Shown: positions 1,024 to 18,183, counted from the first letter of the stretch. The stretch is 34,355 bases of DNA from a virus (UHGV-2160239), one strand, 5' to 3'. Made by a program: numbers and translations. Notes: a model not told the origin generated them from the letters alone.

Positions 1024-1056
1024 TTCCAGTTTGTAAAACGTAAGAATAATAAAGGG

Positions 1057-1386
1057 TTAACCAATTTTCCTTTCGGATGGGGGTAAATCCGTTGGCTCTT
1101 GCCCATAGTGTGCGAGAGCCGGAGCTATCTGCCCGGATTCAGGCGCAATTTTTCCAGTCATAAACCACAAGGCATATTTTTCGAACCGCGGGCAATTTAA
1201 GATTTTCATCATTACATCCCCTTTGGGTATGGATTCGCCAGTCTCATAACGCCATAGCGCGTTATGCGGAATACCTATTAACTCCGCAGCCTCATTGCGA
1301 CTTGTAATGCGCTCACTTTCACGCATTAGTTTTAGTTTTTCACCAATCTCCAAAATCATATTGCATTCTCCAAATATGTAGTGCAT
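1057..1386 (-). CDS. C: Immunity repressor, P2 C-like
   Basis: 109 aa ORF diverging from cox; C-terminal segment WFMTGKIAPESGQIAPALAHYGQ matches my recollection of the P2 C repressor family; N-terminal HTH-like region. Confidence 0.8.
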   Translation of the reverse strand: MHYIFGECNMILEIGEKLKLMRESERITSRNEAAELIGIPHNALWRYETGESIPKGDVMMKILNCPRFEKYALWFMTGKIAPESGQIAPALAHYGQEPTDLPPSERKIG

Positions 1387-1453
1387 TATGCAAACAATGA
1401 GTTGAACTATGGGGTAAATATCTCACCTATACCCCAAACAGGGAGATTATCAC
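1387..1453. promoter_or_regulatory. Divergent C / cox promoter-operator region (putative)
   Basis: 67 bp between divergent repressor and cox starts; inverted repeat TGGGGTA (1410-1416) / TACCCCA (1430-1436) and direct CTATGGGG/CTATACCCC-like half sites. Inferred from position and symmetry only. Confidence 0.35.
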
Positions 1454-1780
1454 ATGAATGAAGAACTATTGAGGGCATTGTTTAAGATCCCAGACCCCAT
1501 CACCGTCGATGAATTTGCTCGCCGCACGGGCAAGACCGAATCAGCCGTAAGAAAGTTGGTGGAACGTCGACTTATCCCTCTGGCCACTGAGCGTGAAGTT
1601 TTAGGCGAGGAAGGAAGTTCACGCCGCCTTCTCATCCTATGGAACGAGTGGCTCGAAATGGTCTATGACGCAACGAAACAGCTTCCTCCTGAGCGTAAAG
1701 ATTGGCGCAACCACTGGCTTAATAAAGCCAAGAAGCTGGCGGAAGATTTGGGATTAGGCTTCCTTAATTTTGCTGCATGA
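1454..1780 (+). CDS. cox: Cox-like excisionase / early transcriptional regulator
   Basis: 108 aa first gene of the rightward early operon; GGGAG RBS 10 nt upstream; pattern EFARRTGKTESAVRKLVERRLIP resembles the Cox winged-helix family. Confidence 0.65.
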   Translation: MNEELLRALFKIPDPITVDEFARRTGKTESAVRKLVERRLIPLATEREVLGEEGSSRRLLILWNEWLEMVYDATKQLPPERKDWRNHWLNKAKKLAEDLGLGFLNFAA

Positions 1781-1798
1781 GATGCAGGGAGTTTTGAT

Positions 1799-2140
1799 AT
1801 GAAACAGCAACGTAATTCACGCTTTCGTAATGGTGCTGAACGCCACGCTAACCGTTTCGCTACCAGTGCATCACGCAGCAACATCCGCTACAGCCTGAGT
1901 GATACACACGCAACGCCGGATGGCTACCCAGTAAAACAAATCGGCGAGCATGCCTGGCTGATTGAGAAAGCTGGAATCGTGGTCCACAAATGCCCACGCA
2001 ATCCGTTTACCGGAAACCGCATTTTTGCACTAAGCAGCGGCGACAATCAGTTCGGGCAGGATTTCACATTATACGAAGCATTACGCACGGTTGATCGTCT
2101 GCTTCGTGGGCAAAGTTTTATTAAACAGACTGATTTATAA
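1799..2140 (+). CDS. Hypothetical early protein
   Basis: 113 aa ORF with GGGAG RBS; co-directional with the early operon; no recognisable motif. Confidence 0.5.
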   Translation: MKQQRNSRFRNGAERHANRFATSASRSNIRYSLSDTHATPDGYPVKQIGEHAWLIEKAGIVVHKCPRNPFTGNRIFALSSGDNQFGQDFTLYEALRTVDRLLRGQSFIKQTDL

Positions 2141-2150
2141 CAGGTGCGTT

Positions 2151-2429
2151 ATGACCAAAGAGCATGCACAAGGTGTATTTATCCGTTTTATTGATTTTCG
2201 CGGTGAGTTGTTGTTACGCGCATCAGCTATTGATGCTGTAGTCCCGGCAGAAAAAGACGTGGCCACTTACCTTTATCTGAACGGCACGCGATTGTTTGTG
2301 GAGCTTCCGTACCACACCGTACGCGAAATCATTAGCGAAGCTGAAAAGGCACGCCAGGTTAATGGCGATGAACCCTATATCGAAATTATTTGCATGGATT
2401 CAGAAGCTGAAATACAGAAAGCAGATTAA
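2151..2429 (+). CDS. Hypothetical early protein
   Basis: 92 aa ORF (internal ATG of track ORF 2091..2429), tightly packed in the early operon. Confidence 0.45.
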   Translation: MTKEHAQGVFIRFIDFRGELLLRASAIDAVVPAEKDVATYLYLNGTRLFVELPYHTVREIISEAEKARQVNGDEPYIEIICMDSEAEIQKAD

Positions 2430-2440
2430 AGGGCGTTGTG

Positions 2441-2683
2441 ATGGGCAAAGAATATAAAACTCTCATTAACAAAGCACTTGAGCGTTTTTATTTTCGCTTA
2501 AGTGCATCAGGCGCTCATGCTGAACGTGCGGCCCGTGACTCATTGACCAGAGCAATCCGAAGTCTGTATGACGTGGCTTTTTACGCTGATGATCTGGATG
2601 CACTTAACGAACTTTCCGAGCTGATCTGTGCCGCAGAATGCGGGGAACACATTGAACCGTATAAGCTGGGGAATATCGCATGA
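2441..2683 (+). CDS. Hypothetical early protein
   Basis: 80 aa ORF starting at ATG 2441 (GTG 2438 also possible); stop overlaps the start of the next small ORF. Confidence 0.45.
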   Translation: MGKEYKTLINKALERFYFRLSASGAHAERAARDSLTRAIRSLYDVAFYADDLDALNELSELICAAECGEHIEPYKLGNIA

Positions 2684-2793
2684 GTATATTTATCTCATGG
2701 CTTGTTCTGATTATTTCGGTGGCCTGTGCCATTGGAATTATGCGAATTATTCATTCAGTGAAAAAGATCGAGCGTTTTTTCTCTGATGAATAA
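2680..2793 (+). CDS. Small hydrophobic single-pass membrane peptide (37 aa)
   Basis: ATGA start/stop overlap with the upstream gene; translation MSIFISWLVLIISVACAIGIMRIIHSVKKIERFFSDE is one TM helix plus a charged tail; below the ORF-track length cutoff. Confidence 0.35.
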   Translation: MSIFISWLVLIISVACAIGIMRIIHSVKKIERFFSDE

Positions 2794-2885
2794 CGATACA
2801 AATAAAACATCAAATTAAATAAGAAAACGTGAAAACCATCCGTATTAACGGAGGTATTCGCACACGTAAATAACGGAGATATAAA

Positions 2886-3302
2886 ATGAACGCAAAAGAA
2901 AAAAATATTATCAATACATTAAAAATAGTGTCAGCAGAGCAAGACAAGCTGTCCAGGGCAGCCCAGAAAGATAATCAACATATGGTAGCGCTTTACGCAC
3001 TGACCATCGCAATAGCCACCTCTGAAGCAGCCAAAGTTATTGAGGAACAGAGCAAAGAAATCGACACTCTTAAAACACCGTCAACAGTTGCAACCATGAA
3101 TCCGTCCAGCATTGGACGCTGCATTTATATTCTTGGTTCAGCAATGATGCTGCAATACACCATTATTGCCGAACTGCACGGCAAATACCTGATAACGCCT
3201 TACCACACAAAAGAGTCAGAGCTTCTGACAAATCTCCGCCTGATAGAACGCTCTCAAGCTGTATTCATTGATGACGCGCAACGTGCCGTATTTAACGCAT
3301 AG
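2886..3302 (+). CDS. Hypothetical protein in AT-rich insert
   Basis: 138 aa ORF; GGAG RBS; local base composition visibly more AT-rich than flanking phage genes. Confidence 0.5.
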   Translation: MNAKEKNIINTLKIVSAEQDKLSRAAQKDNQHMVALYALTIAIATSEAAKVIEEQSKEIDTLKTPSTVATMNPSSIGRCIYILGSAMMLQYTIIAELHGKYLITPYHTKESELLTNLRLIERSQAVFIDDAQRAVFNA

Positions 3303-3330
3303 GGTTATTGGACAAAAAAAAGGGGGGGCA

Positions 3331-3534
3331 ATGGCAATTAAGCATTTTCCCGTCGTTCGCTTTACCTCCAGAGGGCGCGAATACGAGGTCGACGAACGCC
3401 TGATTACCACTATCGACAAACATCGTTCGGAAAAGGATGCACACCACATCTACCTCACTGACGGCACTTATTTCTGCGCCACTAATGTGGCGCGGGTAAA
3501 CCTTATCCGACAGGTACAGGAGCAGCGTAAATGA
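3331..3534 (+). CDS. Hypothetical small protein, first gene of coupled four-gene operon
   Basis: 67 aa from ATG 3331, preceded by an A8 G7 homopolymer that serves as the RBS; stop overlaps the next start (ATGA). Confidence 0.45.
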   Translation: MAIKHFPVVRFTSRGREYEVDERLITTIDKHRSEKDAHHIYLTDGTYFCATNVARVNLIRQVQEQRK

Positions 3535-3749
3535 ACAGAAGGCGAATCACACGCAGGCATCGCCGCACACACATGAATTCCTTACCGACGCTGAAAGAAC
3601 TCATTCAACACGAGATCGCTGATTTCTGCGCAACGCTGGGGTCGCCTGGCGAACCGGAAACACCAGAAGCGATGCAGCGCGAACTCATGATGCGCATCGA
3701 TAACGTTTTTGACTTTTTCCTGAATAACAAAAGAGAGCAATCAACATGA
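3531..3749 (+). CDS. Hypothetical small Arg-rich protein
   Basis: 72 aa; ATGA overlaps on both sides; alternative in-frame start at 3573. Confidence 0.45.
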   Translation: MNRRRITRRHRRTHMNSLPTLKELIQHEIADFCATLGSPGEPETPEAMQRELMMRIDNVFDFFLNNKREQST

Positions 3750-3949
3750 ACAAAAAGACCTGGTTTCGCGCATACATGTGGGCGCTGGTATGCGTCCTCG
3801 TCTCTCTCATTCTGTATGCAGGACTACTCCCCCGAATGATTTCATCAGACAGCTCCTTCCTGGTATTGCTGGGCATTTTCATTGCCATGCTGTACCCGGC
3901 AGGCGTTGTTCGCCTTTTCAGTAAGTACATCAAGGAAATCAAACAATGA
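3746..3949 (+). CDS. Small two-helix membrane protein (possible NfeD/YqiJ-like partner of the SPFH protein)
   Basis: 67 aa with two hydrophobic stretches (WALVCVLVSLILYAGLL and FLVLLGIFIAMLYPAGVV); ATGA overlap with the downstream SPFH gene. Confidence 0.55.
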   Translation: MNKKTWFRAYMWALVCVLVSLILYAGLLPRMISSDSSFLVLLGIFIAMLYPAGVVRLFSKYIKEIKQ

Positions 3950-4776
3950 AGAAACTCAAACTCTTTCAGATTATCCCGCTTTTTGCGGCCATCCTGTTGG
4001 TTGGTTGCGATCGCGTTGAGCCAGGTAATGTGGGCATCAAAGTCAACAAGCTGGGCGACGACAAAGGCGTCGGCGAAGTGGTTGGCGTTGGCCGCTACTG
4101 GACTGGCTGGAATACCGAGGTTTACATCTTCCCGACCTTCAAACAAATGAAGACCTACGATGAGCCGTTCAGTTTCCAGATGAGCGATGGCACAACCATC
4201 GGCTATCACATCGGCGTGGCCTACAAGGTTGATCCATCCAAAGTGACCACAGTGTTTCAGACCTACCGCAAAGGCGTGGATGACATTACCGACACTGACC
4301 TGCGCCAGAAGATCGCCGATGCACTCAACCGACTGGCCAGCAAAATGACCACCGATAAGTTTATCGACGGTGGCAAGTCTGAACTGCTGGATTCAGCACT
4401 TAAAGACATTCAGGCAGAAATGACACCTATCGGCATTCAGGTAATGAGCCTCTCTTATGTCGGTAAACCGGAATACCCACCAACCGTTATCGACAGCATT
4501 AATGCCAAAGTCACGGCAAACCAGAAAACTCTGCAACGCGAACAGGAAGTCAAGCAGCGCGAAGCAGAAGCCAACATGCTACGCGCAGAAGCAGCCGGAC
4601 AGGCTGATGCCATTCGCACAAAAGCCCAGGCTGAAGCCGACGCCATTCGTTTGCGCGGTGAAGCTCTGCGCCAGAACCCCGGCGTTATGGAGCTGGAAGC
4701 TATCAACAAATGGAACGGCACGCTGCCGCAATACATGACCAGTAATACCGCTGTTCCGTTTGTTCCGGTGAAGTAA
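3946..4776 (+). CDS. SPFH / band-7 (stomatin-prohibitin-flotillin-like) lipoprotein
   Basis: 276 aa; signal peptide with lipobox LLVGC; central SPFH-like region followed by an Ala/Glu/Arg-rich coiled coil (QREQEVKQREAEANMLRAEAAGQADAIRTKAQAEADAIRLRGEALRQ) typical of band-7 proteins. Confidence 0.8.
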   Translation: MKKLKLFQIIPLFAAILLVGCDRVEPGNVGIKVNKLGDDKGVGEVVGVGRYWTGWNTEVYIFPTFKQMKTYDEPFSFQMSDGTTIGYHIGVAYKVDPSKVTTVFQTYRKGVDDITDTDLRQKIADALNRLASKMTTDKFIDGGKSELLDSALKDIQAEMTPIGIQVMSLSYVGKPEYPPTVIDSINAKVTANQKTLQREQEVKQREAEANMLRAEAAGQADAIRTKAQAEADAIRLRGEALRQNPGVMELEAINKWNGTLPQYMTSNTAVPFVPVK

Positions 4777-4782
4777 TTAAAC

Positions 4783-4807
4783 CCGGCCAGTGGAAACCGC
4801 TGGCCGG
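4783..4807 (+). terminator. Stem-loop downstream of the SPFH gene (possible terminator)
   Basis: CCGGCCAG ... CTGGCCGG inverted repeat right after the stop codon; T-run is displaced about 14 nt, so termination efficiency is uncertain. Confidence 0.35.
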
Positions 4808-5143
4808 AGCAGCATCAGGATTTTTTAGTATGCCGTTCTCACAAAAAAACCGCTTGCCATGCCGCAATCAGTCAGGTTACATTTCCGCTGCACCTCATAA
4901 AACGGGTGCCGGGTTTCGCAGCCTGCTGACTAGCAAAGCGCACAACCGCGCCAGCGGTTTTTTTGTGCGTACTGTATTGCCACGTCTTTTTCGCACACGA
5001 ATTATGGCGGGGCGTACGGGGCCGACTTCGGTCGGGCCGGGTTCTTTGCTAGCCGGTACTGCGAACCTCGTACGTCTCGCCACCCACAGTTTCGCAGCTC
5101 TGGATGGTGAGTTTTCAAAACTTACTAGCAAAGAGGCCACACC

Positions 5144-5374
5144 ATGGCAAACCGCAAACAGCACCGCGCTATCGCGGAGCGTCGTCACATCCAGACTGAA
5201 ATCAACCGCAGACTTTCCCGCGCATCACGCGTCGCGCAAATCATGCACATCAATATGCTGCATGAGCGCAGCCACGCACTATCAAACATTTATTCCGCCT
5301 CTGTTTTCAGCTATCTGGCGGATGATCTGCGCGAGCTTCAGCAGCTCATCCAGCAGCAAAACCAACTCCATTAA
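5144..5374 (+). CDS. Hypothetical small protein upstream of A
   Basis: 76 aa; AGAGG RBS; basic, helical-looking sequence, possibly a regulator. Confidence 0.5.
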   Translation: MANRKQHRAIAERRHIQTEINRRLSRASRVAQIMHINMLHERSHALSNIYSASVFSYLADDLRELQQLIQQQNQLH

Positions 5375-5446
5375 TTCCTGTTCCGGGCCTTTCCTGCACC
5401 TTGCGGCGGGAGGCCTTCGCACATCTGTACTTTGACGGAGTTTGTG

Positions 5447-7753
5447 ATGAGTACCTCTCACTCATACCCGTGGAACGCGCCGGACTGGGACGTGGCAACA
5501 GCAAACGGCATCACGCCCGACGCTGCCGTCTCTGCCGTGCATGAAACCACCGAAACCACAAGCAACACAGCATTCGCCTACCTGACACCGGACGGCGAAC
5601 GCCGCGTGCTGGATATGAGCGACCTCCGCGCAGTCTGCCGCGAGTATCAGAAGGGGCTTCTGGAGCGCGAACGACAGGAAATCATCCGCCGCCGGAAACA
5701 TGAGGAGTGGCTGCGTCGCCGTCTGGCCACGCTGCCTTCATTCATCCGCACCACCTTCTCCAGAAAACTGGAAAAGATGGACAGAGAAACGCCGGAACGC
5801 GCTTACCACTGGCTTTGCGGAACGTTCGAGAAGCACGTTCTGCGCCGCGTGGATGTGGTAAATGAACAGTACGAACCGCAGACACCGTGGCCCGACATGC
5901 TGCTCCCTTTGCGCGACGCGTTTCACCGCCTGCCGTGGGCGGACAGGAAGAAAATGCGCCACCTCGCCTGGTTGCTGGCCTCCGTCATGACATCGGAATT
6001 CACACGCCGGTTTGATGACCAGTACGCGCTCACGGGCGATCTGGAATCATCCGTGGTGGACGCATACGGCTATATTGCAAGCCGCGCGACTTTTCTGAAC
6101 ATCTTCATCCCCGGTTGGCGGCATTATCAGGGTGAAAGTCTGACACCGGATGATGCACTCCGCTGTGTTTCCCGCCTCCAGTCGCAGAAGTGGTGGCTGG
6201 GAAAAATCCGGCGAATCCACGAATGCTGGCGCGAACATCTGTTGATTGCCACGGGGCACGTGAGCAAATACGCAGGCGCAAAATGCTCTGACGAGTGTCT
6301 CGCATCGTGGCGTGCGCAACGCAAGGCAAACCTTGAATGGATGTCGGCAATGGACCTGGAAAACGAGGATACGGGCGAGCGTATGCCGCTGCTCGACAAG
6401 GTGCTGGGCAGCGTTGCTAACCCGAAAATAGCCCGTCATGAACTCACCGTTCGTGCGGCTGGCTTTCAGGCGACCGCTGACGAGATGGGTTACGTCGCCA
6501 TGTTTTACACACTGACCGCCCCTTCCTCGTATCACTCAATGCGCGTCAAAGACGGAAAACGGAACGACAAATACAACGGGGCCAGTCCGCGTGCCACGCA
6601 GAAATATCTCTGTAAGGTCTGGAGCCGCGTTCGCGCCGCGTGGCGGCGTAAAGGCATCCGCACCTTTGGCATTCGCACCGCTGAGCCTCACCACGACGGA
6701 ACGCCGCACTGGCATCTCGTTCTCTGGTTCCACCCGGACGACACCGAAGAGGCCACACGCATATTCCGGGAGTATGCGCTGGCGGAAGACGGTGGTGAGT
6801 CGGGTGCTGACAAGTACCGCTTTGAAGCGGTCGAAGAGGACAAAACGCGCGGCCGCGCAATTGGCTACATCGTCAAATACATCTCCAAAAACATCGATGG
6901 CTACGGGCTGGATGGCGAAGCCGACCGCGAAACAGGAAAATCCCTGAAAGACGAAGCGCGACGCGTCAGGGCATGGGCTTCGCGCTGGCGTATTCGTCAG
7001 TTCCAGCAGATTGGGGGCGCACCTGTTTCGGTCTGGCGTGAACTGCGCCGACTGGGGGGGTGTGAACTGGTACTGCATCCACAGATTGAAGGCATTCGCG
7101 CCGCAGCAGATGAGGGGGACTGGCAGGCGTACACCATGCTTCAGGGTGGGCCTTTTGTGGAGCGTTGCGAACTGGTGGTTCGTCTCGCCTATGACAGACA
7201 GGAGGATGCCAACGCCTACGGCGACACAGTTTGCAAAATTGCAGGAGTCCGCGACATGACAATGCCGCCGGAAGACATGATTTTCACTCGCCTTAACACT
7301 TACAAAATTGTGCCAAAAGTCAGCAAAAACAATGACAAAGAACAAACAGAAGGCCGCGACGCGGCCCCTTGGAGTTCTGTCAATAACTGTACGCACAGAC
7401 GAAGCAGTGGTGAGCATGAAGGCGAGCATTCCGACAAAACACCACCGGAATCACCGCCGGAAACGGTGAAAAAAGCGCCGGAATCACCATCACAGACAGA
7501 AGAAGATAGCGCCAGTCTTAACCAAATCATCGGGCCGCTGGAGCGACTCGGCTTTACCGTGTCCCGCCACCTCGCAAAATCCGTTCTTGCGGGTGGCGTA
7601 GTGCGCTCAACCGACGGTGTTGTCGCCCGCTGGGACACATCATGTAACAGACTGGTGGTCACGCGCGCGAACGCGTCGCCGTCGCTGGTTGTTTCGAAGG
7701 TTTCCGAATACACCAGACGACTGAAATGGGCGCTGGCACGGAGGTCGCTGTGA
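5447..7753 (+). CDS. A: Replication initiation endonuclease (P2 gpA-like, HUH rolling-circle)
   Basis: About 768 aa from ATG 5447 (GGAG 6 nt upstream); HUH-type metal motif in TPHWHLVLWF and catalytic tyrosine motif GYIVKYISKNIDGY; size and position match P2 gene A. Confidence 0.9.
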   Translation: MSTSHSYPWNAPDWDVATANGITPDAAVSAVHETTETTSNTAFAYLTPDGERRVLDMSDLRAVCREYQKGLLERERQEIIRRRKHEEWLRRRLATLPSFIRTTFSRKLEKMDRETPERAYHWLCGTFEKHVLRRVDVVNEQYEPQTPWPDMLLPLRDAFHRLPWADRKKMRHLAWLLASVMTSEFTRRFDDQYALTGDLESSVVDAYGYIASRATFLNIFIPGWRHYQGESLTPDDALRCVSRLQSQKWWLGKIRRIHECWREHLLIATGHVSKYAGAKCSDECLASWRAQRKANLEWMSAMDLENEDTGERMPLLDKVLGSVANPKIARHELTVRAAGFQATADEMGYVAMFYTLTAPSSYHSMRVKDGKRNDKYNGASPRATQKYLCKVWSRVRAAWRRKGIRTFGIRTAEPHHDGTPHWHLVLWFHPDDTEEATRIFREYALAEDGGESGADKYRFEAVEEDKTRGRAIGYIVKYISKNIDGYGLDGEADRETGKSLKDEARRVRAWASRWRIRQFQQIGGAPVSVWRELRRLGGCELVLHPQIEGIRAAADEGDWQAYTMLQGGPFVERCELVVRLAYDRQEDANAYGDTVCKIAGVRDMTMPPEDMIFTRLNTYKIVPKVSKNNDKEQTEGRDAAPWSSVNNCTHRRSSGEHEGEHSDKTPPESPPETVKKAPESPSQTEEDSASLNQIIGPLERLGFTVSRHLAKSVLAGGVVRSTDGVVARWDTSCNRLVVTRANASPSLVVSKVSEYTRRLKWALARRSL

Positions 7754-8205
7754 GTACCAGCGCCACGCCGTCGTTTTTGCTCTCGCTCGACAATCCCGAC
7801 TGTTGCCGGGTTTTCGGGGGCGCTGTCACGCAACTGGAGCTTACGGGCTGCCGCCGCGCACCTGAGGTCGGCGACATTATCAAAGTCGAGTGGCTTTTTC
7901 TGGGGACTGTCGCGCAGTCGTTTCTGGTTGAGGTTGCCGGGGTTGAGCTCGTTTCCCCCGCCGTTCGCGGCGCTTATGTGGTGGTTCTTCGCTGGCCTGA
8001 ATCCAGTCACGACGGGGTACCCGCCCGTCCGCAGCTTGCTACCCCGCCCGCGCCCCCGCAATTACCCGCCAGCGCAAGTGCTGTCATTGATTGCTACAGA
8101 CAGGAATTGCAGGAAAAGAAGGCGGTGAAATTCCGCAGCAGCATCGCTGCCGCATGGCGAAAGGCCGAACTACTGCAACGAACGCATCAGACAGCTGGCA
8201 GTTGA
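7750..8205 (+). CDS. Hypothetical Pro-rich protein downstream of A
   Basis: Open frame in GC-rich DNA starting at GTG 7750 overlapping the A stop; long ORFs arise by chance in DNA this GC-rich. Confidence 0.3.
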   Translation: MSTSATPSFLLSLDNPDCCRVFGGAVTQLELTGCRRAPEVGDIIKVEWLFLGTVAQSFLVEVAGVELVSPAVRGAYVVVLRWPESSHDGVPARPQLATPPAPPQLPASASAVIDCYRQELQEKKAVKFRSSIAAAWRKAELLQRTHQTAGS

Positions 8206-8261
8206 GGGGGCAACGAATGAAAAGAATTAACGCCAACACGAAGGCGAAAAAACAGACAGAA

Positions 8262-8354
8262 ACGGGATTCACAAATCCCGTAAATGAGCAAAAAACGCGC
8301 CGCGATATATGAAGCGCGCATAAAACAGGCAAAAACGGGATTTCAGAATCCCGT
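8262..8354. promoter_or_regulatory. parC-like centromere / promoter with paired palindromic repeats
   Basis: Two near-identical 20-bp palindromes, ACGGGATTCACAAATCCCGT (8262-8281) and ACGGGATTTCAGAATCCCGT (8335-8354), each ACGGGATT/AATCCCGT around a 4-bp core, directly upstream of parM. Confidence 0.5.
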
Positions 8355-8388
8355 AAACGATTAATTAATCAACATAAGGAAAAACGAC

Positions 8389-9348
8389 ATGAAAATTTGT
8401 ATCGACGACGGCTCCACCAACATCAAGCTGGCATGGACTGAGAACGGCGAACGCCGCAACGCCATCAGCCCGAACAGCTTCAAGTCGGAATGGTCTGCGC
8501 CGTTCGGTGGCACGCAGCCCGCGAACTACATGCTTGATGGCGTGCGCTATGGTTTTGATCCGGTTAGCGATCGCTTTGTCCAGACGACCGACACGCAATA
8601 CCAGTACAGCGATGTGAATGTCATTGCCATTCATCACGCGCTGGTCAAATCAGGCATCACACCACAGGAGGTGGATGTGGTTGTCACCCTTCCACTGAGC
8701 GAGTATTTCGACACAAACGCACAACCGGACATGGCCAACATCAACCGCAAAAAAGCGAACGTTATGCGCCCGGTGGAATACCAGAACGGCGAAGCATTCA
8801 CTATCCGCAACGTACGGGTTATGCCTGAATCCATTCCGGCTGGCTTTAAGGCACTGGCTGACATGAGTCCGTTTGAATCCCTGCTGATTGTGGATTTAGG
8901 CGGAACCACGCTGGATGTGGCAAAGGTTCAGGGACAACTGGCAGGTATCAGCCAGGTGTTTTGCGATCCACACGTAGGCGTTTCCCTGATAGCCGATGCC
9001 GTACTGTCGGTGATGGCCACTAACGGTATGCGTACCAGTCACCATATCGCCAATACCATCATCGAACATCGCCACGATGAAGTCTGGCTGCGCCAGCACA
9101 TCCACAATGACGCGCATTACGACAGCCTGATGGCGGTAATTCGTGAAAAGGAAGAAACACTGAAACAACGCGTGATCCGCGCGCTGGCGGGTTTTTCGGG
9201 TTACGGGCAGGTGATGGTTGTCGGTGGAGGGGCGGAGATTGTGGCACCCGCTATCCGCGAAGCCTGCGGAGTTAATGCGACTTTCATCGCGGACGGGGTG
9301 CCACAGTTTGCTCTGGTTAATGGGCTGTACGCAATGGACAAGGAGTAA
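8389..9348 (+). CDS. parM: Actin-like plasmid segregation ATPase ParM/StbA
   Basis: 319 aa; N-terminal IDDGSTNIKLAW phosphate-1 motif, YSDVNVIAIHHAL, VMPESIPAGF, LIVDLGGTTLDVA phosphate-2 and VMVVGGGAE adenosine motif, collinear with plasmid R1 ParM as I recall it. Confidence 0.9.
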   Translation: MKICIDDGSTNIKLAWTENGERRNAISPNSFKSEWSAPFGGTQPANYMLDGVRYGFDPVSDRFVQTTDTQYQYSDVNVIAIHHALVKSGITPQEVDVVVTLPLSEYFDTNAQPDMANINRKKANVMRPVEYQNGEAFTIRNVRVMPESIPAGFKALADMSPFESLLIVDLGGTTLDVAKVQGQLAGISQVFCDPHVGVSLIADAVLSVMATNGMRTSHHIANTIIEHRHDEVWLRQHIHNDAHYDSLMAVIREKEETLKQRVIRALAGFSGYGQVMVVGGGAEIVAPAIREACGVNATFIADGVPQFALVNGLYAMDKE

Positions 9349-9352
9349 ACCA

Positions 9353-9664
9353 ATGACGACTCCAACCAGACGGATAAGTTTCTATCTGAAGCCCGCCGTC
9401 GTCAAGAACGAAGGCGAAGCATGCGCCTGGCTGGACAGCCTTACACCAGAAGCCCGCAAAAGCGGCCAACGCGTGGCTTTTCTGGCCGGGCTGGCACTAC
9501 TGAAAATGAATCCGGCAGAGGCTTACCGACTGGCTGCATGGGCTGATGATGAGGCGTTATCAGTGACACAAATCAGGACAGAACGCCCCGCGTCACAGCC
9601 AGTATCAACCGCACAGATAACCAGTCAGATGGCCGGAAATATCCGGGCGTTATTTCCCGAATAA
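9353..9664 (+). CDS. parR: ParR-like centromere-binding adaptor
   Basis: 103 aa immediately after parM (AAGGAG RBS); RRISFYLKP ... LDSL ... AFLAGLALL parallels the R1 ParR N-terminal ribbon-helix-helix region RTIAFKLNP ... LDSI ... ALTAGLAL. Confidence 0.7.
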
Positions 9665-9726
9665 CACAACATCAGGGCGTATCCGCCCTGATGACTTTAA
9701 CCCGGGAGCATAAACAAGGGGACACA

Positions 9727-10062
9727 ATGCAACACATTGACAGAGAAAAAGCGCAGCGACTGATTGAGCGGATGGAAGCGCTGGCGAAAGAAGAAAATGT
9801 CAACATCCAAAAAATAGCTGAATGTGGACAGATAGTTCTTCGTCGTGAAAAAGACCTCAAACAACTGATGTTTGGCGAAACCAGTAAAACATGGACTTCA
9901 GGCGAGAAGACGGTTTATTGCAGTTTCTGCAATAAATCCCAGTACGAAGTCACAAAGGTGATTGCCGGACCGTCTGTTTACATCTGCAATGAGTGCGTGG
10001 ATTTGTTCAATGAAATTATCAGGAGAGAAGTGACAGGCCATGAAGAAAAAACGCATGAATGA
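9727..10062 (+). CDS. Standalone ClpX-type C4 zinc-finger domain protein
   Basis: 111 aa from ATG 9727 (AGGGG RBS); C-terminal [38 protein letters not shown] is collinear with the ClpX N-terminal zinc-binding domain (CxxC ... CxxC); N-terminal about 60 aa is a charged helical region. Confidence 0.7.
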
Positions 10063-10123
10063 CGAATTTGACGGTTTTTAATTTTATCGGGGCGCACTGT
10101 CCACCCCGCACGAGGAAAACACG

Positions 10124-10648
10124 ATGAAAAAATACGAATACATGCTGATGAAAGAAGCACTGCGGGTTGGTTTGGCTCCCTGTCCTGTATCCGTAGAAGC
10201 TGTTGTTGGGAACACGATTTTCCGAACGCTGCGAAATCGCGTATCCGTGAAAATGATTCACCAACCACCCAATTCTATCAGCATGATTTATCTGCCGCTG
10301 CCCGAGGCTATCAAACTTATGCGTTCGTTGAAATTTGCGATTTGGATGCAGACACAACTCAACAAAGCGGTGCAAAACACCTTCGTTAAGAAACTGATGC
10401 CGGAGCTTGCTGCCAGATGTGCAAAATGTACCAGACCCGCACTTCAATTTGATCTGTCATTGATTCAACAAGCTACGGAGGCAGAACTGTACCGCCTGTC
10501 ACCTCTCCGTGATGCTCACACGGAAGCCTCAGAAATGTTCCGGCTCATGTTTCAATTTAATTTTGCCGTTCGACGCACACGCGTTCAGGTCAATCGCATG
10601 ATGCAGGCGCAGGAAGAGCTGGCGCAACACAAAGGAGACAACCAGTGA
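10124..10648 (+). CDS. Hypothetical protein (174 aa), first gene of a coupled pair
   Basis: GAGGAAAA RBS; stop overlaps the GTG start of the next gene; no recognisable catalytic motif. Confidence 0.5.
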   Translation: MKKYEYMLMKEALRVGLAPCPVSVEAVVGNTIFRTLRNRVSVKMIHQPPNSISMIYLPLPEAIKLMRSLKFAIWMQTQLNKAVQNTFVKKLMPELAARCAKCTRPALQFDLSLIQQATEAELYRLSPLRDAHTEASEMFRLMFQFNFAVRRTRVQVNRMMQAQEELAQHKGDNQ

Positions 10649-11184
10649 GCAAGATTGACTATCAGGCACTACAAATGGCAGCAGAACGTGCAATTCCGGC
10701 AATGGAACGCCTGTTAATATTGCCAGTTGATGATGATTTGTTAAGCGAACAGGAACTTAAAGATTGCGGTGTGGATATTGACGCGATCAACACCTTCAGA
10801 CTTCTGGCTGGACCGGAAACCATGCTGGCACTGCTGGAACAACAGAAAGTCAAGGACAACCGAATCGCTGAACTGGAAAAAATCGTTACTGACTATGCAC
10901 TTAAATTCCAGAAAGCACAGGACGCATTAAAGTATGCCGCTTTGCTGCATAGCCGGACGGCGCAACAAACAAATAATTTTGCAGTATTGCTTCCGGACAT
11001 AAGCGAATATTTCATTAATGACGTATTTCAGCCCTTGCGATATGAGCGGGATGTTGAAAGAGCCATCATAAAGGCTGGCGGAAAAGCATTGTGGCAGGAG
11101 AAACAGGAGGACAGAACGCATCAGTCCTGCGATGTAAATCGCGGATGGTTTAGCCCACTGACGACAGATAAAAATAACACCTGA
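10645..11184 (+). CDS. Ead/Ea22-like family protein (tentative)
   Basis: 179 aa, GTG start with AAAGGAGA RBS; N-terminus MSKIDYQALQMAAERA and coiled-coil LALLEQQKVKDNRIAELEK resemble the lambdoid Ea22/Ead family as I recall it. Confidence 0.5.
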   Translation: MSKIDYQALQMAAERAIPAMERLLILPVDDDLLSEQELKDCGVDIDAINTFRLLAGPETMLALLEQQKVKDNRIAELEKIVTDYALKFQKAQDALKYAALLHSRTAQQTNNFAVLLPDISEYFINDVFQPLRYERDVERAIIKAGGKALWQEKQEDRTHQSCDVNRGWFSPLTTDKNNT

Positions 11185-11623
11185 TCCCCCTCAAACTAGG
11201 GCGATAATCGCGCATCGCCCTGCTGCACAATAGTGCACAAACTTGCACAATTTTTTTGAACGACTTTTTGCCCTTCCAGCCCCCGTGGCGGCTGGATCCG
11301 TCAAGGATCCGTGCGTGCACAAAAAAACGCGTTTTTTCTGCGCGCAGGTGACGGGGGAACAGCCCGCGTTTCAGGGGGTAAATAGCATTCCCTGAACGAT
11401 GTCGCAGCGACACAACAGAATGGCTGTATTTCTCACACTGAGCGTGAAAAAGGCGTGAGGGCTTTTGATTTGATGGGGTGACAGATAAGGCCGTCAAAAT
11501 CGCACTGAGGCGGCAGGAACATGCAGTCAACGCGGTGGGATTGCGTAAGAGCCTGACCGTCGATGATGGCGATAAGCTGGAAGACGTCGTGAAATTATCT
11601 GATTGATACAGGAGCTGGAGAGT

Positions 11624-11646
11624 CGGGGCATAAATTTTTTATGCCC
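11624..11646. terminator. Hairpin terminator downstream of portal gene Q
   Basis: GGGGCATAAA TTTTTTATGCCCC perfect inverted repeat with a central T/A run, just 3-prime of the Q stop on the minus strand; could act in both directions. Confidence 0.5.
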
Positions 11647-11674
11647 CGGCGAAGCAGCAGACAAGCGAAGCGCG

Positions 11675-12721
11675 TCAGGATGTGGGCTGGGTGTCCAGCA
11701 GTGCGTAAGGGTTAAAGCGGATCACCTCTTCGCCAAGCCAGTCATTGATATGCTTCATGGCCTCCATGACGGGCATCAGCTCGTTAATTGCGTAAACCCG
11801 CGCTGCCTTCTCCACATCACCAAACGCACTTTTTTCGCCCGGCATCGCCCCCATCAGTTGCGGCGGAACGCGGTGCGCAGCCAGCACATCATCACGGGAT
11901 GCCGCCTTAACATTCATGAACTCATCCTTTGCGGTGATCTGCTGGAACGGCAAAATTTGCACACCTTCTTTGCCCCCGTTGGGCGCGTGAATGAGCACGT
12001 TTTTAAATGCACCACCACCACGCGCACCCTGTAGCGTTTCCTTCAGGGAGTCCATGCTTTCGCGGTTTACCTGCGCTGCACCGATGTAGATGATGCACCC
12101 GGCGTGGGATCCATTGTCGTAGTACAGTTTTCTGAACATGTCCGCCGAATGAGACAGGCTGGCCGAGAGTAATGCGCCAAGATATTCCGGCATGCCGTAA
12201 ATTTCCTGGTTAATGTCCGGATTCATCAGGTGGCACACTTTGCCAGGGCGAAACTGAAACGCGTCGTTGCCATCCTGCACATACCACCATGATTCAAGAT
12301 CGCTTCCGCGCCGCATGTATTTCGCCAGTGCGTGCCGTAATTTAAGTGGTTCGCCGAGCATATTGCTCCGAAGCTCAAGGAATGCGTTACCGAACACAAA
12401 CCAGTCCAGCGCCAGCGCCGAGAAATCCTGCCGGGAAAGCAGCGGGTGCGGGATGTAGCAACCGAGTAATACATTGCGCTTAAAGTAAAGCGCAGACTGA
12501 TGCCAGGACGTTTGCCGGGCGGCTCTTGCCAGACCGTACCAGTCCACCGGGGTTTCATACCACCGCCCGTTATCAGCACAGTACATATTGTCCAGCAGGT
12601 CATGCCCGGTCAGGCGGTAAGGACCATCAAATGTGAATGCACTGAGCGACGATTCTTTCCTGAGCGCATCAGCGAGATCAATGCGTGAACTCATGCGCAC
12701 TTTTTTATTTTTTCTGCTCAT
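11675..12721 (-). CDS. Q: Portal protein (P2 gpQ-like)
   Basis: 348 aa; start overlaps the terminase stop; divergent from the capsid operon exactly as P2 Q-P; size matches gpQ. Confidence 0.85.
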   Translation of the reverse strand: MSRKNKKVRMSSRIDLADALRKESSLSAFTFDGPYRLTGHDLLDNMYCADNGRWYETPVDWYGLARAARQTSWHQSALYFKRNVLLGCYIPHPLLSRQDFSALALDWFVFGNAFLELRSNMLGEPLKLRHALAKYMRRGSDLESWWYVQDGNDAFQFRPGKVCHLMNPDINQEIYGMPEYLGALLSASLSHSADMFRKLYYDNGSHAGCIIYIGAAQVNRESMDSLKETLQGARGGGAFKNVLIHAPNGGKEGVQILPFQQITAKDEFMNVKAASRDDVLAAHRVPPQLMGAMPGEKSAFGDVEKAARVYAINELMPVMEAMKHINDWLGEEVIRFNPYALLDTQPTS

Positions 12722-14472
12722 CAGAACTCCATAACCGTGAAACGCTCGTTTTCTCCTTCGCCGCCAATTGGTTCGTTAATGACAGCAAGCATGGTTGCCC
12801 ACGCAAGGTCGCCGTGGCTGATCCCCCTCGCGCGGTCCGTTTCGTAAGTGATAAAGCCGCCCGGTGTTTTCACCTTACGCACGGCGTTAAAGGCCGCGAC
12901 CAGCTCGCGTTCGGCGCGATCGTATTCCCACCGCCCGGCACGCATTATTTGCAGCATTTTCAGTACCAGCGACCGTTTTGATGACAGCGTGAAGGTGTAC
13001 GGAATAGCAGCAGGGAAAAAACGTTTCACTATCTGATAAACAGCCTCCCCGTTCCCGCCCGTCACATCAATGCCGATGTGTTCCACGTTGTAGCGACACG
13101 TGAACTCCTCAATGACTCTGGCCTGTTCTTCAAACTCCAGCCCCTGAACGCGTCGCGTCTCCACCGTTCGAAAACGGCCACCAGGAACAGCCGGAGGAAC
13201 CACCACGGACACCGCGCCACTGTCGCCGTTTCCACTGCTGCCGTTTGCGTCATACCCAATCCATACCGGACGATTCCCCATCGGGCGGGGAGCAAAAGGT
13301 TTCCAGTCTTTCCAGTCGTCGTATCCGTCAACGCCGCAGCCAATCAGGATATTCAGGTTAAATGCCGATTCCCCTTCGCGGACAAACTCACACATATAGA
13401 GATTGCGGAACTCGTCTTCGGTGTTTTCATCACGAATTTCATCAATATCGGTGTGTTTCCAGCCGTGATTAACCACATCTTCCAGCGTGACAATTTGCCG
13501 CCACGTCCGGTCGGGGCAGATAAGCCCGTTATGCAGCGTTTTCCAGTCCACAGAAAAACGCTGGCGTTTATGCGCGGCCTTTTTCTCGTTCCAGCGGTCG
13601 CCGTTCCAGTAGACGTATGCCTCGTGCGTTTCGGTTGATGGCGTGGAGAAGTAGGTGCGTCGCAGCCCGCTGAGGGTTGCCATAGCGCCAGCCACCTTGC
13701 GCAGTTCAGCAAAGCGACTGACCCAGAAAAATTCATCAAAATAAAAATTGCCTGTGTAGGACTGTGCCGTCGCAGCAGAAGTGCCGAGAAAATGCAGCTC
13801 TGCGCCGTTGGAGAGGATGATTTTATCGCCCCCTTTCAGCTCCACATCAACTTCAGATGCAGCCTTCTGAATAATGCTTTTAAACTGGAACGCCTGACGA
13901 CGCGACGCAGACAAAAAAATCTGGTTACGCTGGTAAGGTTGCGCCACATCGTCACGCAGCGCCATCAGCAGTGCTTCCTGTGCAAAATACCAGGTCGCCC
14001 CAATCTGTCGGGATTTCAGGATCATCCTGTTACGTATCCCGGCTTCCCTGCAAAGGGTCAGGGAGTCAAACCAGCCCCGCTGATGCCACTCCAGCCTGCT
14101 GATGATTTTTTCCCGCAGTGCGGCAATCTGTTCCGGCGTGAAATGATTTTTAAGCTTTTTCGCCCGGCCTTTCTTTCCTGTGGCCGTCGCATCCGGCTGG
14201 TCATCATGCAGTTTTTTAAGCTGCCGGGTCAGCAGGTCTATTTCCTTAAAGTCACCGCCTGTTTTATTCTGTTTTTCAGTAAGCTGGATGAGGCGCGCAT
14301 CGATGGACTGCGTGACACGCTGCACGGGTGGCGTTTCATCCCACTGGTCGCGTTTTTTCCACGCATAAATCGTGTTCGGGTTTATTCCCATCAGACGTGA
14401 TATTTCAGCGGGCGGATAACCCTGCCAGTAAAGTTGTCGCGCACGCTGGCGCACAAAAGCGTCCTGAATCAT
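12721..14472 (-). CDS. P: Terminase large (ATPase) subunit (P2 gpP-like)
   Basis: 583 aa; N-terminal HTH-like segment YWQGYPPAEISRLMGINPNTIYAWKKR, then ATPase and nuclease regions; size and position as P2 P. Confidence 0.9.
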   Translation of the reverse strand: MIQDAFVRQRARQLYWQGYPPAEISRLMGINPNTIYAWKKRDQWDETPPVQRVTQSIDARLIQLTEKQNKTGGDFKEIDLLTRQLKKLHDDQPDATATGKKGRAKKLKNHFTPEQIAALREKIISRLEWHQRGWFDSLTLCREAGIRNRMILKSRQIGATWYFAQEALLMALRDDVAQPYQRNQIFLSASRRQAFQFKSIIQKAASEVDVELKGGDKIILSNGAELHFLGTSAATAQSYTGNFYFDEFFWVSRFAELRKVAGAMATLSGLRRTYFSTPSTETHEAYVYWNGDRWNEKKAAHKRQRFSVDWKTLHNGLICPDRTWRQIVTLEDVVNHGWKHTDIDEIRDENTEDEFRNLYMCEFVREGESAFNLNILIGCGVDGYDDWKDWKPFAPRPMGNRPVWIGYDANGSSGNGDSGAVSVVVPPAVPGGRFRTVETRRVQGLEFEEQARVIEEFTCRYNVEHIGIDVTGGNGEAVYQIVKRFFPAAIPYTFTLSSKRSLVLKMLQIMRAGRWEYDRAERELVAAFNAVRKVKTPGGFITYETDRARGISHGDLAWATMLAVINEPIGGEGENERFTVMEF

Positions 14473-14626
14473 TGCTCCCCCTGAGTAATTACAGGAAGAT
14501 TACCCGCGCGCGAAACCGTTCTCCTTAACCCCCTGTTCTGGCCATTTTCTTACAACAAAAGCCCTTTGTATCAGCCTGTTACGCTTTGCCATCATGACTG
14601 AAGAACCAGTCAGAGGGGCAAAAACT

Positions 14627-15463
14627 ATGGCTAATGAAAAAAAGACATCACGCAAAAAGTTTCGCGTGGCTGTCTCCGGATCAACTGTTGATGGCCGCGA
14701 AATCAGTCCGGTGCATCTGCGTGAAGCTGCTGAGAACTTCGACCCGGATGTTTACGCTGCCCGCGTGAACGTTGAGCACTATCTCTCGCCATGCCCGTCA
14801 AGCGAATTTTCCGCAATGGGCGATGTCACTGCACTGAGTACGGAAGACATTACGGAAGGTCCGCTGGCCGGGCGTACTGCGCTGTATGCAGAAATCGAAC
14901 CGACCGAGCGCATGAAGAAGCTTGTCGCTGACGGCAAGAAAATTTATTCCAGTATCGAACTGCACCCGCAGTTCTCCGTTAACGGGCGCGCCTATCTGGT
15001 CGGGCTGGCGATGACCGACACCCCGGCAAGCCTGGGCACTGAACGTCTGAAATTCACGGCACAGCAACGTCAGGCAGTGATGAAATTCAACAGTGTCCAG
15101 GGTGAGGCTCCGCTTATCTCCGAAGCCATCGAGTCTGAAATCATCGAAATGGCAGAACAACGCCAGGAAGAAGGCACCCAGTGGTTTAACCGCGTAATGG
15201 GAATTATTGGCCGTGGCCGCAAAGCGGATGACGCCAGTTTTTCCCGCATTCAGGAAGCGGTGGAAGGCGTCGCAACGTCACAGGCCGACATTATCGACCG
15301 TTTTAATGCACTGGAAGCCCGCCATAAGCAGGACCGTCAGAAAATCACATCACTGACCACAGAGCTGGCAGCACTGAAGGAAAAACTGCGCACGCAGGAC
15401 GGCGATCCGCAGAACCGGTTCACCGCAACGGGCGCAGCCTCCGACCAGCTGGCTGACTTCTGA
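14627..15463 (+). CDS. O: Capsid scaffolding protein (P2 gpO-like)
   Basis: About 278 aa from ATG 14627 (AGAGGGG RBS); N-terminus KKFRVAVSGSTVDGREI ... FDPDVYAARVNVEHY matches the gpO family; first gene of the rightward late operon. Confidence 0.85.
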   Translation: MANEKKTSRKKFRVAVSGSTVDGREISPVHLREAAENFDPDVYAARVNVEHYLSPCPSSEFSAMGDVTALSTEDITEGPLAGRTALYAEIEPTERMKKLVADGKKIYSSIELHPQFSVNGRAYLVGLAMTDTPASLGTERLKFTAQQRQAVMKFNSVQGEAPLISEAIESEIIEMAEQRQEEGTQWFNRVMGIIGRGRKADDASFSRIQEAVEGVATSQADIIDRFNALEARHKQDRQKITSLTTELAALKEKLRTQDGDPQNRFTATGAASDQLADF

Positions 15464-15486
15464 CAAGACAAAGGAGCAAATTTTTT

Positions 15487-16539
15487 ATGAATCTGGTGAT
15501 GTCAGATATTACCCGCAACAAACTGGGTTGCTATATGGCGCAGCAGGCGTCGCTTAACAATATCCCGGTTTCTGCACTGGTATCGCGATTTACCGTAGAA
15601 CCCTCGGTGCAGCAGCGTTTTGAAAACGCAGTAAAGGAGAGCACTGAATTTACAAAAAAAATTAACGTATTCGGTGTGACCGACCAGAAAGGCGAAAAAA
15701 TCCTCCTGGATACCACCGGGCCGATTGCGCGCACGAATACCAGTTATGACGGCACAAAACGCCGTAACCCGAATAACGTGGTTGATCTGAAAAACCGCAA
15801 ATACCAGTGCGAACAGGTGAACTACGACACGTTTATTTCGTATCCGCAGCTTGATGCCTGGGCGGCACACCCTGATTTTCAGTCCCGCGTCAGCACACAG
15901 ATTGCCCGGCAGGTGGCGCTTGACCGCATCATGATTGGTTTCAACGGCACGTCTCACGCAGATGAGTCCAACTTCAGCACTAACAAGCTGCTTCAGGACG
16001 TTAACGTGGGCTGGCTGGAGCACATCAGAACCGATGCCAGTGAACGCGTTATGAATGATGTAACGCTGACCTCCCGCAACATGGACAACACCGTGGCGCA
16101 CGCGGGTAAGTATGCGAACGCTGATGCACTGGTACAGGACGCGCGCTCATCCCTGCTGGATGAATGGCACAAGGAAGCTGACGACCTCGTGGTGATTATG
16201 GGGCGCAACCTGTTTAACTCGCTGCGTCTGCCCGTGCTGAACAGCATCAGCGGCCAGAATCCCAATGCGGAATTACTTGCCGGACAGCTCATCCTGTCAT
16301 CGCGCGCCATTGGCGGGCTGGATGTATTCCTTGCGCCGTTCTTCCCGGATTCAACGATGCTGATCACCTCGTTCAACAACCTGTCGATTTACTGGCAGAA
16401 AGGAACAATGCGTCGCCTGATGAAAGACGAGCCGGAATACAACCGCATCGCCACTTACCAGTCCATCAATGACGCTTATGTCGTTGAAGACTATGGCAAG
16501 TGCGCGATGGTCACTGGCCTGAAGTTCGCCGACAGCTAA
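15487..16539 (+). CDS. N: Major capsid protein (P2 gpN-like)
   Basis: 350 aa; FTVEPSV motif near the N-terminus as in gpN; an alternative start at 15499 is possible. Confidence 0.9.
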   Translation: MNLVMSDITRNKLGCYMAQQASLNNIPVSALVSRFTVEPSVQQRFENAVKESTEFTKKINVFGVTDQKGEKILLDTTGPIARTNTSYDGTKRRNPNNVVDLKNRKYQCEQVNYDTFISYPQLDAWAAHPDFQSRVSTQIARQVALDRIMIGFNGTSHADESNFSTNKLLQDVNVGWLEHIRTDASERVMNDVTLTSRNMDNTVAHAGKYANADALVQDARSSLLDEWHKEADDLVVIMGRNLFNSLRLPVLNSISGQNPNAELLAGQLILSSRAIGGLDVFLAPFFPDSTMLITSFNNLSIYWQKGTMRRLMKDEPEYNRIATYQSINDAYVVEDYGKCAMVTGLKFADS

Positions 16540-16584
16540 TCAACTCACGGCGGGCATCATGCCCGCCTGTAACGGAGAGAAAGA

Positions 16585-17385
16585 ATGATTACCCCTGCAC
16601 AGCAACACTGGCAGAACGTGATGGCGCAGCGCGCAGGCCGGGCGAATGAAGGCGTGGATCACGCCGCACGTACCGCGCATGAAGAGGTGCTGTATCGTCT
16701 GCGTCTGGCACAGGTCCGACTTAAGGGCGTACAGGCCAGAAGCGCCAAAGCCGCCATCAAAAAAGAGTTGTTACCGGACTTTTCTGGCTGGATTGAAGGA
16801 ACGCTGGAGGCTGACGGCGGGCAGCAGGATGAGGTGATTGCCACGCTGATGGTGTGGGCGATTGACTGTGGCGATCTTCCGCTGGCATTGCGTATTGGTG
16901 CGTATGTGGTCCGTCACAACCTCATCATGCCGGATAACTTTGGCCGTACTGCTGCCACAGTGCTGACCGAAGAAATCTGCAACCCGGTACTGACGCAGGC
17001 CGGGACGGATGCCGACGCGGATTTGTCCGCCTTTATCGAACCACTGGACACCCTCCGGGAGATTGTCACCGACCAGGATATGCCGGACGAAGTACGCGCC
17101 AAATTATGCAAGGCGTGCGCCTTTGCCCGCCGTGGCCTGAGCGATGCGGACAGCATGGCCCTGTCACTGAAGCTGCTGCGCGAAGCGATGCACCTGAACC
17201 CGAACGCAGGTGTGAAACGCGAGATTGCAACCCTTTCCCGCGCCCTGAAAAAAGCCGATTCCGCAGCCGCCCCAGATGACGCCAGCGCACAGCAGGCGCA
17301 GGACGAAAGCAGCAAAAGTAAAAAGACAACGCGGAAGCCTGCAACACGAAAAACCACCGCGACGCAGAAGACGAAGCGCGGTTAA
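16585..17385 (+). CDS. M: Terminase small (endonuclease) subunit (P2 gpM-like)
   Basis: 266 aa following N; basic Lys/Arg-rich C-terminal tail; position as P2 M. Confidence 0.8.
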   Translation: MITPAQQHWQNVMAQRAGRANEGVDHAARTAHEEVLYRLRLAQVRLKGVQARSAKAAIKKELLPDFSGWIEGTLEADGGQQDEVIATLMVWAIDCGDLPLALRIGAYVVRHNLIMPDNFGRTAATVLTEEICNPVLTQAGTDADADLSAFIEPLDTLREIVTDQDMPDEVRAKLCKACAFARRGLSDADSMALSLKLLREAMHLNPNAGVKREIATLSRALKKADSAAAPDDASAQQAQDESSKSKKTTRKPATRKTTATQKTKRG

Positions 17386-17402
17386 CGACTGACCCCGTCA
17401 GC

Positions 17403-17470
17403 GGGCGGCGTGCGCGGTGTTCCGGTTTGACTCCGTGACCGTTTACACCGCGCACCCACCGCCCGATTTT
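17403..17470 (+). terminator. Long imperfect hairpin plus T-run between M and L (possible attenuator)
   Basis: GGCGGCGTGCGCGGTG ... CACCGCGCACCCACCGCC inverted repeat followed by GATTTTTTC, just upstream of the L start. Confidence 0.35.
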
Positions 17471-17477
17471 TTCAGGA

Positions 17478-18181: not shown

Positions 18182-18183
18182 CA

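Follow-up and report, generated by a model that had tools for sequence, protein, structure and literature searches.

A putative type II (ParMRC) segregation cassette in the replication region of P2-like coliphages

Background

The closest described relative of the locus reported here is the type II partition system parMRC (also parA or stb) of the IncFII plasmids R1 and NR1, in which a centromere, parC, is followed by parM, encoding an actin-like ATPase, and by parR, encoding a centromere-binding adaptor. R1 is a low-copy theta plasmid, its centromere consists of ten 11-bp direct iterons around a promoter, and its ParR, 116 amino acids (aa) in length, reportedly binds ParM through a C-terminal peptide. 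In the present study, we analysed UHGV-2160239, a viral sequence of 34,355 nucleotides (nt; this whole stretch is hereafter called the window), which represents a complete P2-like prophage and carries a cassette with the same gene order at positions 8262-9664. An R1-family ParM is also found in the tailed phage D6, whose StbA/ParM is 47.8 % identical to that of the window. D6, however, is a plasmid prophage of 91 kb whose lifestyle requires partition, whereas phages of the P88 type, to which the window is related, integrate. In contrast to R1, the window combines such a system with an integrating phage and rolling-circle replication.

Actin-type partition has also been described for integrating elements. 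SrpMRC of SXT/R391, whose excised circle replicates via a rolling-circle relaxase, is expressed only with the excision/transfer regulon and stabilises both the element and a test plasmid (PMC4489591). According to its authors, SrpM is only a distant relative of R1 ParM, and SrpR shows no homology to ParR (PMC4489591). Furthermore, AlpAC/alpS of the Corynebacterium glutamicum prophage CGP3 is switched on soon after excision, and efficient replication of the phage DNA depends on it (PMC4446434, PMC5539076). Both are likened to the window by description and not by sequence: SXT/R391 is a conjugative element and not a virus, and CGP3 resides in a Gram-positive host, belongs to a divergent actin-like family, and has another order of the adaptor gene.

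Results and discussion

The window comprises an integrase, a C-type repressor, Cox, the replication gene gpA, portal, terminase, capsid and tail genes, gpD, and a DNA methylase. Downstream of gpA lies a complete type II cassette made up of ParM, ParR and repeated upstream sites, as the first-pass annotation had proposed; its genes and palindromes have the coordinates and content given there. We consider it probable that this cassette is a working ParMRC segregation module belonging to the replication region of a large P2-like phage lineage, and not a recent pick-up from a plasmid. The features of the cassette are as follows:

8249-8287, no strand assigned: candidate parC repeat unit 1, 39 nt, holding the palindrome 8262-8281; ACGGGATTCACAAATCCCGT
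8322-8360, no strand assigned: candidate parC repeat unit 2, 39 nt, holding the palindrome 8335-8354; ACGGGATTTCAGAATCCCGT
8361-8388, + strand: conserved leader with the ATTAATCAA element and an AAGGA ribosome-binding site, read from sequence
8389-9348, + strand: parM, actin-like ATPase, 319 aa, identified by Pfam, a PDB match and alignment to R1-type ParM
9353-9664, + strand: parR, putative centromere-binding adaptor, 103 aa (PF10784, 3.4e-24)

The parM product is matched end to end by Pfam StbA_N (1.8e-82) and the ParM C-terminal domain (4.6e-68), and a search of the PDB retrieved the R1 ParM structure 1mwk over ParM residues 2-316 (E=1e-92). It is collinear with IncFII R1-type ParM at 47 % identity, interrupted by two gaps of one residue each. 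The phosphate-1, connect, phosphate-2 and adenosine motifs of an actin-fold ATPase are all present, and the motifs DDGSTNIK (6-13), MPESIPAG (with E147 corresponding to R1 E148), DLGGTTLD (D169, corresponding to R1 D170) and GGGAE (279-283) are identical to those of R1. The nucleotide-binding motifs are hence unchanged, and the alignment reveals no sign of the degeneration that had been named beforehand as grounds for abandoning the assignment.

The parR gene follows directly 3' of parM after a gap of 4 nt and encodes a protein of the same Pfam family as R1 ParR, 103 aa in length compared with 116 aa in R1, with a predicted N-terminal DNA-binding domain of the ribbon-helix-helix type. The N-terminus matches R1-type ParR, as had been noted, with 36 % identity across residues 6-61 (the N-terminal 56 aa). 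Among 39 ParRs of the E. coli lineage, identity to the window protein spans 43-95 %, whereas ParM of the same lineage is 91-98 % identical. This variation is confined to a hypervariable linker, residues 68-94 (window 9554-9634). Residues 1-67, the N-terminal DNA-binding domain, are conserved, including the RRISFYLKP strand as well as R35, R40 and G46, and the final eight positions, N-I-[RQ]-x-[LF]-F-P-E, hardly vary among the 39 homologues. This C-terminal motif, which can also be written N-I-x-x-[LFM]-F-P, reads NIRALFPE in the window and lines up with ...KKNAMKLIN at the end of R1-type ParR and with ...NNIKNLFP of IncI-type ParR. N96 is invariant in 12 of 12 aligned ParRs, those of IncI-type and R1-type plasmids included, and the hydrophobic residue five positions later is F in 11 of the 12 and I in R1. 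A DNA-binding head joined by a free linker to a conserved tail is in keeping with an active adaptor. Recombination breakpoints lie inside parR at about 9406 and 9498.

Upstream of parM, two 20-bp palindromes of the form ACGGGATT-N4-AATCCCGT occupy exactly the positions first reported (8262-8281 and 8335-8354). The repeat unit around the second is 82 % identical to the first and lies 73 bp downstream of it, the second palindrome lies 35 bp ahead of the parM ATG, and the two dyads together span 93 bp. Allowing up to three mismatches, the 34-kb window contains only these two matches to the palindrome pattern, compared with 0.07 expected by chance, and none of 100 shuffled sequences contained two. 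Five loci from IMG/VR that have the palindrome in the absence of parM turned out to be unrelated single occurrences. The two dyads provide repeated cis sites directly upstream of parM, which we predict to be ParR sites, although they do not resemble an R1-style parC, as there are two palindromic sites in place of an array of about ten 11-bp direct iterons flanking an autoregulated promoter.

Comparable sites are present in more distant relatives. In Hafnia and Plesiomonas, the DNA upstream of parM has nothing alignable with the window, yet each locus holds exactly two GGG-N10-CCC dyads as its sole such pair, 73 bp apart and starting 128 and 55 nt before parM in Hafnia, and 72 bp apart and starting 131 and 59 nt before parM in Plesiomonas. 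The equivalent dyads of the window start 125 and 52 nt before parM. The ATTAATCAA...AAGG arrangement of the leader likewise recurs 5' of parM in both genera. The 95 E. coli-lineage loci compared retain the core CGGGA..TCCCG but differ in the 4-bp spacer and in the outermost bases. A minimal candidate centromere of two dyads with a conserved spacing of 72-73 bp appears to be new in the searchable literature.

That the palindromes serve some other purpose, as RNA hairpins, minus-strand intrinsic terminators or gpA-related signals, with the true ParR sites elsewhere, we regard as quite improbable. Both are called terminator-like on the minus strand by a scan, with an 8-bp stem and a T-rich tail, and their hairpins fold at -10 to -11 kcal/mol. 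However, no minus-strand gene converges on them, and an Rfam scan found no family at parC. Furthermore, in Hafnia and Plesiomonas the stems shrink to only 3-4 bp with loops of 10 nt, which makes them poor hairpins, and nevertheless the GGG-N10-CCC dyad and its spacing are kept; this favours a dimeric DNA-binding protein reading two half-sites and not an RNA structure.

A further explanation, unlikely in our view, is that the cassette acts in the lysogen, mediating incompatibility or exclusion against related phages or plasmids, or that ParR is chiefly a transcriptional regulator of the gpA-parM junction. This would be in keeping with the unusual diversity of ParR alleles in E. coli, at 50-95 % identity next to 91-98 % for ParM, with the presence of up to three copies per genome, and with the location of the sites, the first overlapping the gpA 3' end and the second lying 35 bp before parM. 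Nevertheless, ParR varies in its linker and not in its DNA-binding strand, nor do its sites vary, so that specificity is apparently not diversifying. Moreover, cross-reaction with IncF plasmids is unlikely given that the candidate parC is unlike that of R1, and a PADLOC scan for known defence families returned no match for ParM, ParR or four neighbouring proteins, the stretch between gpA and cos being a hotspot for P2 cargo.

The following features adjoin the cassette at its left-hand junction, together with a hairpin closing the module on the right:

5432-7753, + strand: gpA rolling-circle replication endonuclease, 773 aa (Pfam Phage_GPA, 8.3e-93)
7726-8205, + strand: 159-aa open reading frame (ORF) separating gpA from the par module, annotated in SWHEFF_58 as a 'hypothetical protein'
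8244-8312, + strand: orphan 3' end of a P88-type gpA, carrying site 1, left behind by replacement of the gpA allele
9670-9693, no strand assigned: GC-rich hairpin just 3' of parR, closing the module (-18.7 kcal/mol, z = -5.8)

Compared with P88, the whole of gpA has been swapped in the window for a non-homologous allele: window 5432-8246, encoding the 773-aa gpA and the separate 159-aa ORF, takes the place of P88 5957-8713, and shares no DNA homology with the 940-aa gpA of that phage. Elsewhere, the allele of the window was found in one of 5426 E. coli genomes, SWHEFF_58, which also retains the 69-bp orphan gpA end, annotated there as an incomplete 'DNA replication protein'. In P88-type phages, gpA stops at the equivalent of 8312, which places site 1 within the last 17 gpA codons. 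The position of both palindromes upstream of parM, as given in the first-pass description, stands, with the correction that palindrome 1 of standard P88-type phages is part of gpA and not intergenic; in the window, site 1 is located in the orphan remnant and not in a live gpA frame.

Homology to P88 resumes at 8247, 2 nt before repeat unit 1, and continues at 97 % identity to 10059. The left edge of homology is 8247 in 117 of 127 related loci, and the right edges, the mosaic breakpoints of the relatives, cluster at the parR stop (9664/9665). A block common to about 1300 E. coli prophages thus begins at 8247 and often ends at the parR stop. These shared edges indicate that the repeats, parM and parR travel as one unit, even when gpA is swapped.

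In a broader comparison, the window is 91-97 % identical to P88 at the nucleotide level over 1820-2866, 3621-5429, 8247-10059 and 11224-19489 in a comparison that covered P88 bases 1-19167, corresponding to the window up to 19489, and it differs in gpA, the integrase/immunity region and the cargo at 10060-11223. Synteny and high identity place it among the Xuanwuvirus/P88-like Peduoviridae. P88 and other Xuanwuvirus members (NC_026014, NC_049391, phiSM) share with it the two sites and the downstream gene at 9727-10062 (+ strand). The latter, directly after parR, encodes 111 aa with little beyond a ClpX-type C4 zinc finger (PF06689, 1.2e-17), and could be a decoy or adaptor for host ClpX. As for the 159-aa ORF, it had no match in Pfam, PHROG or PADLOC. 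We discarded the idea that it is a split-off C-terminal domain of gpA, as it has no similarity to the P88 gpA C-terminus, and likewise a homology to the Hafnia ORF at the same position, to which it is not similar either.

The cassette is widespread. It is 94-98 % identical in 14 phage records, including P88, Xuanwuvirus P884B11 and Citrobacter phiSM, and 1307 of 5426 complete E. coli genomes (~24 %) carry it, with up to three copies each; the P88-type portal/terminase allele is found in 1125 genomes. Relatives reside in P2-like prophages of Salmonella, Citrobacter, Hafnia, Plesiomonas, Serratia and Enterobacter. The first-pass annotation considered a type II system unexpected in a phage with an integrase, a view that we do not share. 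Its genes are 97 % identical to annotated genes of P88 (NC_026014), annotated phage records name them ParM and partition protein, the same labels are found in RefSeq E. coli genomes, and both proteins fall into phage 'partition protein' families of PHROGs; in addition, SrpMRC (PMC4489591) and AlpAC (PMC4446434) are precedents on integrating elements. Since public records already annotate the cassette and it is a clear member of the ParMRC type, it does not represent a new kind of system.

A search of 5.8 billion proteins divided the ParM matches into three groups, namely the E. coli lineage (91-98 % identity), Hafnia and Plesiomonas (62 %), and Serratia and Enterobacter (54-58 %). A contig scan with ParM alone had yielded only three near-identical loci, so the distant contexts were obtained from the contigs encoding the relatives. 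All four distant relatives looked up (54-62 %) lie after gpA in P2-like prophages, either directly or with one or two small genes between, and each is followed by a PF10784 ParR and then by the portal gene. ParM relatives of 48-52 % identity are instead found on plasmids or a conjugative element, and a neighbour-joining tree (no bootstrap) separates the phage ParMs, as two adjacent clades, from those of plasmids. This gpA-tied, phage-specific ParM clade appears to be new in the searchable literature. A P88-type parMR, 97 % identical to the E. coli version, was also found on the 226-kb contig NZ_JBQPOM010000071.1, assigned to 'Vagococcus sp. WN89Y'; this Gram-positive label probably reflects contamination or mislabelling of the assembly.

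These comparisons indicate that the cassette has long been associated with the P2-type replication region, and under selection. The earlier suggestion of a captured plasmid module is unlikely as far as a recent event is concerned: among true plasmid ParMs, the closest reaches only about 52 % identity, and relatives of 54-62 % identity follow gpA in the same position in P2-like prophages of another four genera. A passenger, or decaying plasmid fragment, with no role for the phage, we deem very unlikely. The cassette does lie at the margin of the variable cargo region that stretches from gpA to cos/portal, and some truncated ParM clusters exist. However, it comes after gpA at an equivalent position in five genera, and no plasmid ParM exceeds about 52 % identity. 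Furthermore, parM is under purifying selection, with a ratio of nonsynonymous to synonymous substitution rates (dN/dS) of about 0.08 among 82 distinct intact alleles, and is intact in 91 of 95 related loci, and ParR has kept its functional ends conserved, with drift in the linker.

Could the P88-like phages be facultative phage-plasmids, persisting for many generations as low-copy, non-integrated circles, with gpA for their replication and ParMRC for their partition, besides integrating? A complete P88-like circle of 34.5 kb with integrase, circularised at the attP side, has been deposited as plasmid pZ1323PEC0009-2; the records CP025923 and CP025874, which bear host-strain names and genome-project-style accessions, may be separate circular contigs; and the P1-like plasmid prophage D6 uses a 48 %-identical StbA/ParM. 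Against this, of the 1455 copies in the 5426 complete E. coli genomes, 1453 lie on chromosomes. The cassette was present in only seven of 72,556 plasmid records, mostly as prophages within chromosome-like or very large records, such as pS2122_1, where the prophage lies beside pheA in chromosome-like DNA. We therefore rejected most of the near-identical parMR 'plasmid' matches as true plasmids, which leaves one or two stand-alone copies.

Moreover, the plasmid record pENTAS02 of Enterobacter soli (NC_015969.1; 32.6 kb) equally turns out to be the complete genome of a P2-like phage, which has an integrase but no parMR. Such records may reflect induced or replicating phage, and do not show ParMRC-dependent episomal maintenance. 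In pENTAS02, the slot after gpA is occupied by ImmA/IrrE-family and hypothetical genes. Rolling-circle gpA is the sole replication function identified in the window, with no plasmid-type replication protein among the ORFs scanned, and we found neither an autonomous replicon nor an extrachromosomal lysogen state of the P1/D6/N15 type. The suggestion that the cassette stabilises an episomal state therefore finds little in its favour as a lifestyle, and a facultative phage-plasmid seems to us quite unlikely. If true, however, there would be facultative phage-plasmids in a quarter of E. coli strains, and this would be the first tailed, integrating coliphage lineage shown to have an actin-like motor.

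Our best reading remains that ParMRC segregates or positions excised or replicating phage circles. In such a model, ParR dimers would bind both dyads (core CGGGA-N8-TCCCG), which would constitute a minimal centromere just upstream of parM; as the dyad centres are 73 bp, or about 7 helical turns, apart, the dimers would lie on the same face of the DNA. The C-terminal ParR tail (NIRALFPE) would then capture the ends of ParM-ATP filaments, and growth of a filament between two ParR-parC complexes would push sister phage circles apart. With no terminator predicted on the + strand between gpA and parM and, in contrast to R1, no clear promoter within the cassette, we infer that it is transcribed with the early operon by read-through from gpA. 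ParMRC would thus be active only while the phage exists as an extrachromosomal, gpA-replicated circle, after infection or excision. The likely pay-off would be that copies reach both daughter cells before integration, or that they are well placed for replication. Such a role would resemble those described for SrpMRC of SXT/R391 (PMC4489591) and AlpAC of CGP3 (PMC4446434).

Several observations weigh against a working segregation module of this kind. First, there are only two candidate ParR sites in the window, compared with the ten 11-bp iterons of R1 parC, and a scan of 7600-10200 for consensus sigma-70 promoters found none. Second, the counts of palindrome conservation are biased, as the loci were partly selected for one perfect palindrome. 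Third, the Serratia/Enterobacter clade has one long palindrome upstream instead, with arms of 14-20 nt that are 26-28 nt apart, so that the centromere assignment draws on three lineages; lineage-specific centromeres are, on the other hand, usual among partition systems. Fourth, a sequence search of the PDB with ParR gave no match, and an AlphaFold model of the ParR monomer (from the 39-sequence alignment), with helices at 20-29 and 32-52 and a C-terminal one at 86-100, was of low confidence (predicted local distance difference test, pLDDT, 58) and was not relied on. Fifth, the truncated ParM clusters P0006, P0010 and P0017 (188-261 aa) have 414-649 member sequences each, some from megabase contigs, which suggests that the gene has decayed or acquired frameshifts in certain clonal lineages of E. 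coli. Finally, searches of the literature turned up no experiment on the cassette or study of its role in a phage, only mentions at the level of annotation (P88, phiSM).

Other parts of the early region also deserve mention. The left-hand end of the window and the segment preceding gpA contain the following:

1-1023: integrase, at the left-hand end of the window
3946-4776, + strand: SPFH/Band 7 family protein (7.6e-31), whose P88 equivalent is labelled 'lipoprotein / serine protease'
4890-4964, + strand: Rfam match to the Hfq-binding small RNA isrK (65.5 bits)
5000-5087, + strand: Rfam match to C4 antisense RNA (82.8 bits)

Both RNA matches are at gathering level and fall inside an Ash-like ORF (4830-5435) just 5' of gpA. 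The region has the appearance of a control module of the P1/P4 type, for antisense immunity or anti-repressor control, here within a P2-like prophage.

Conclusions

The cassette can make prophage contigs pass for plasmids in automated typing. Its candidate centromere would be a very compact one for a type II system, and as such would be suited to asking how few ParR sites are needed to cap a ParM filament. If the cassette does partition or position excised circles, an ordinary integrating coliphage would actively segregate its DNA in the course of its life cycle, which would extend the cases of SXT/R391 and CGP3.

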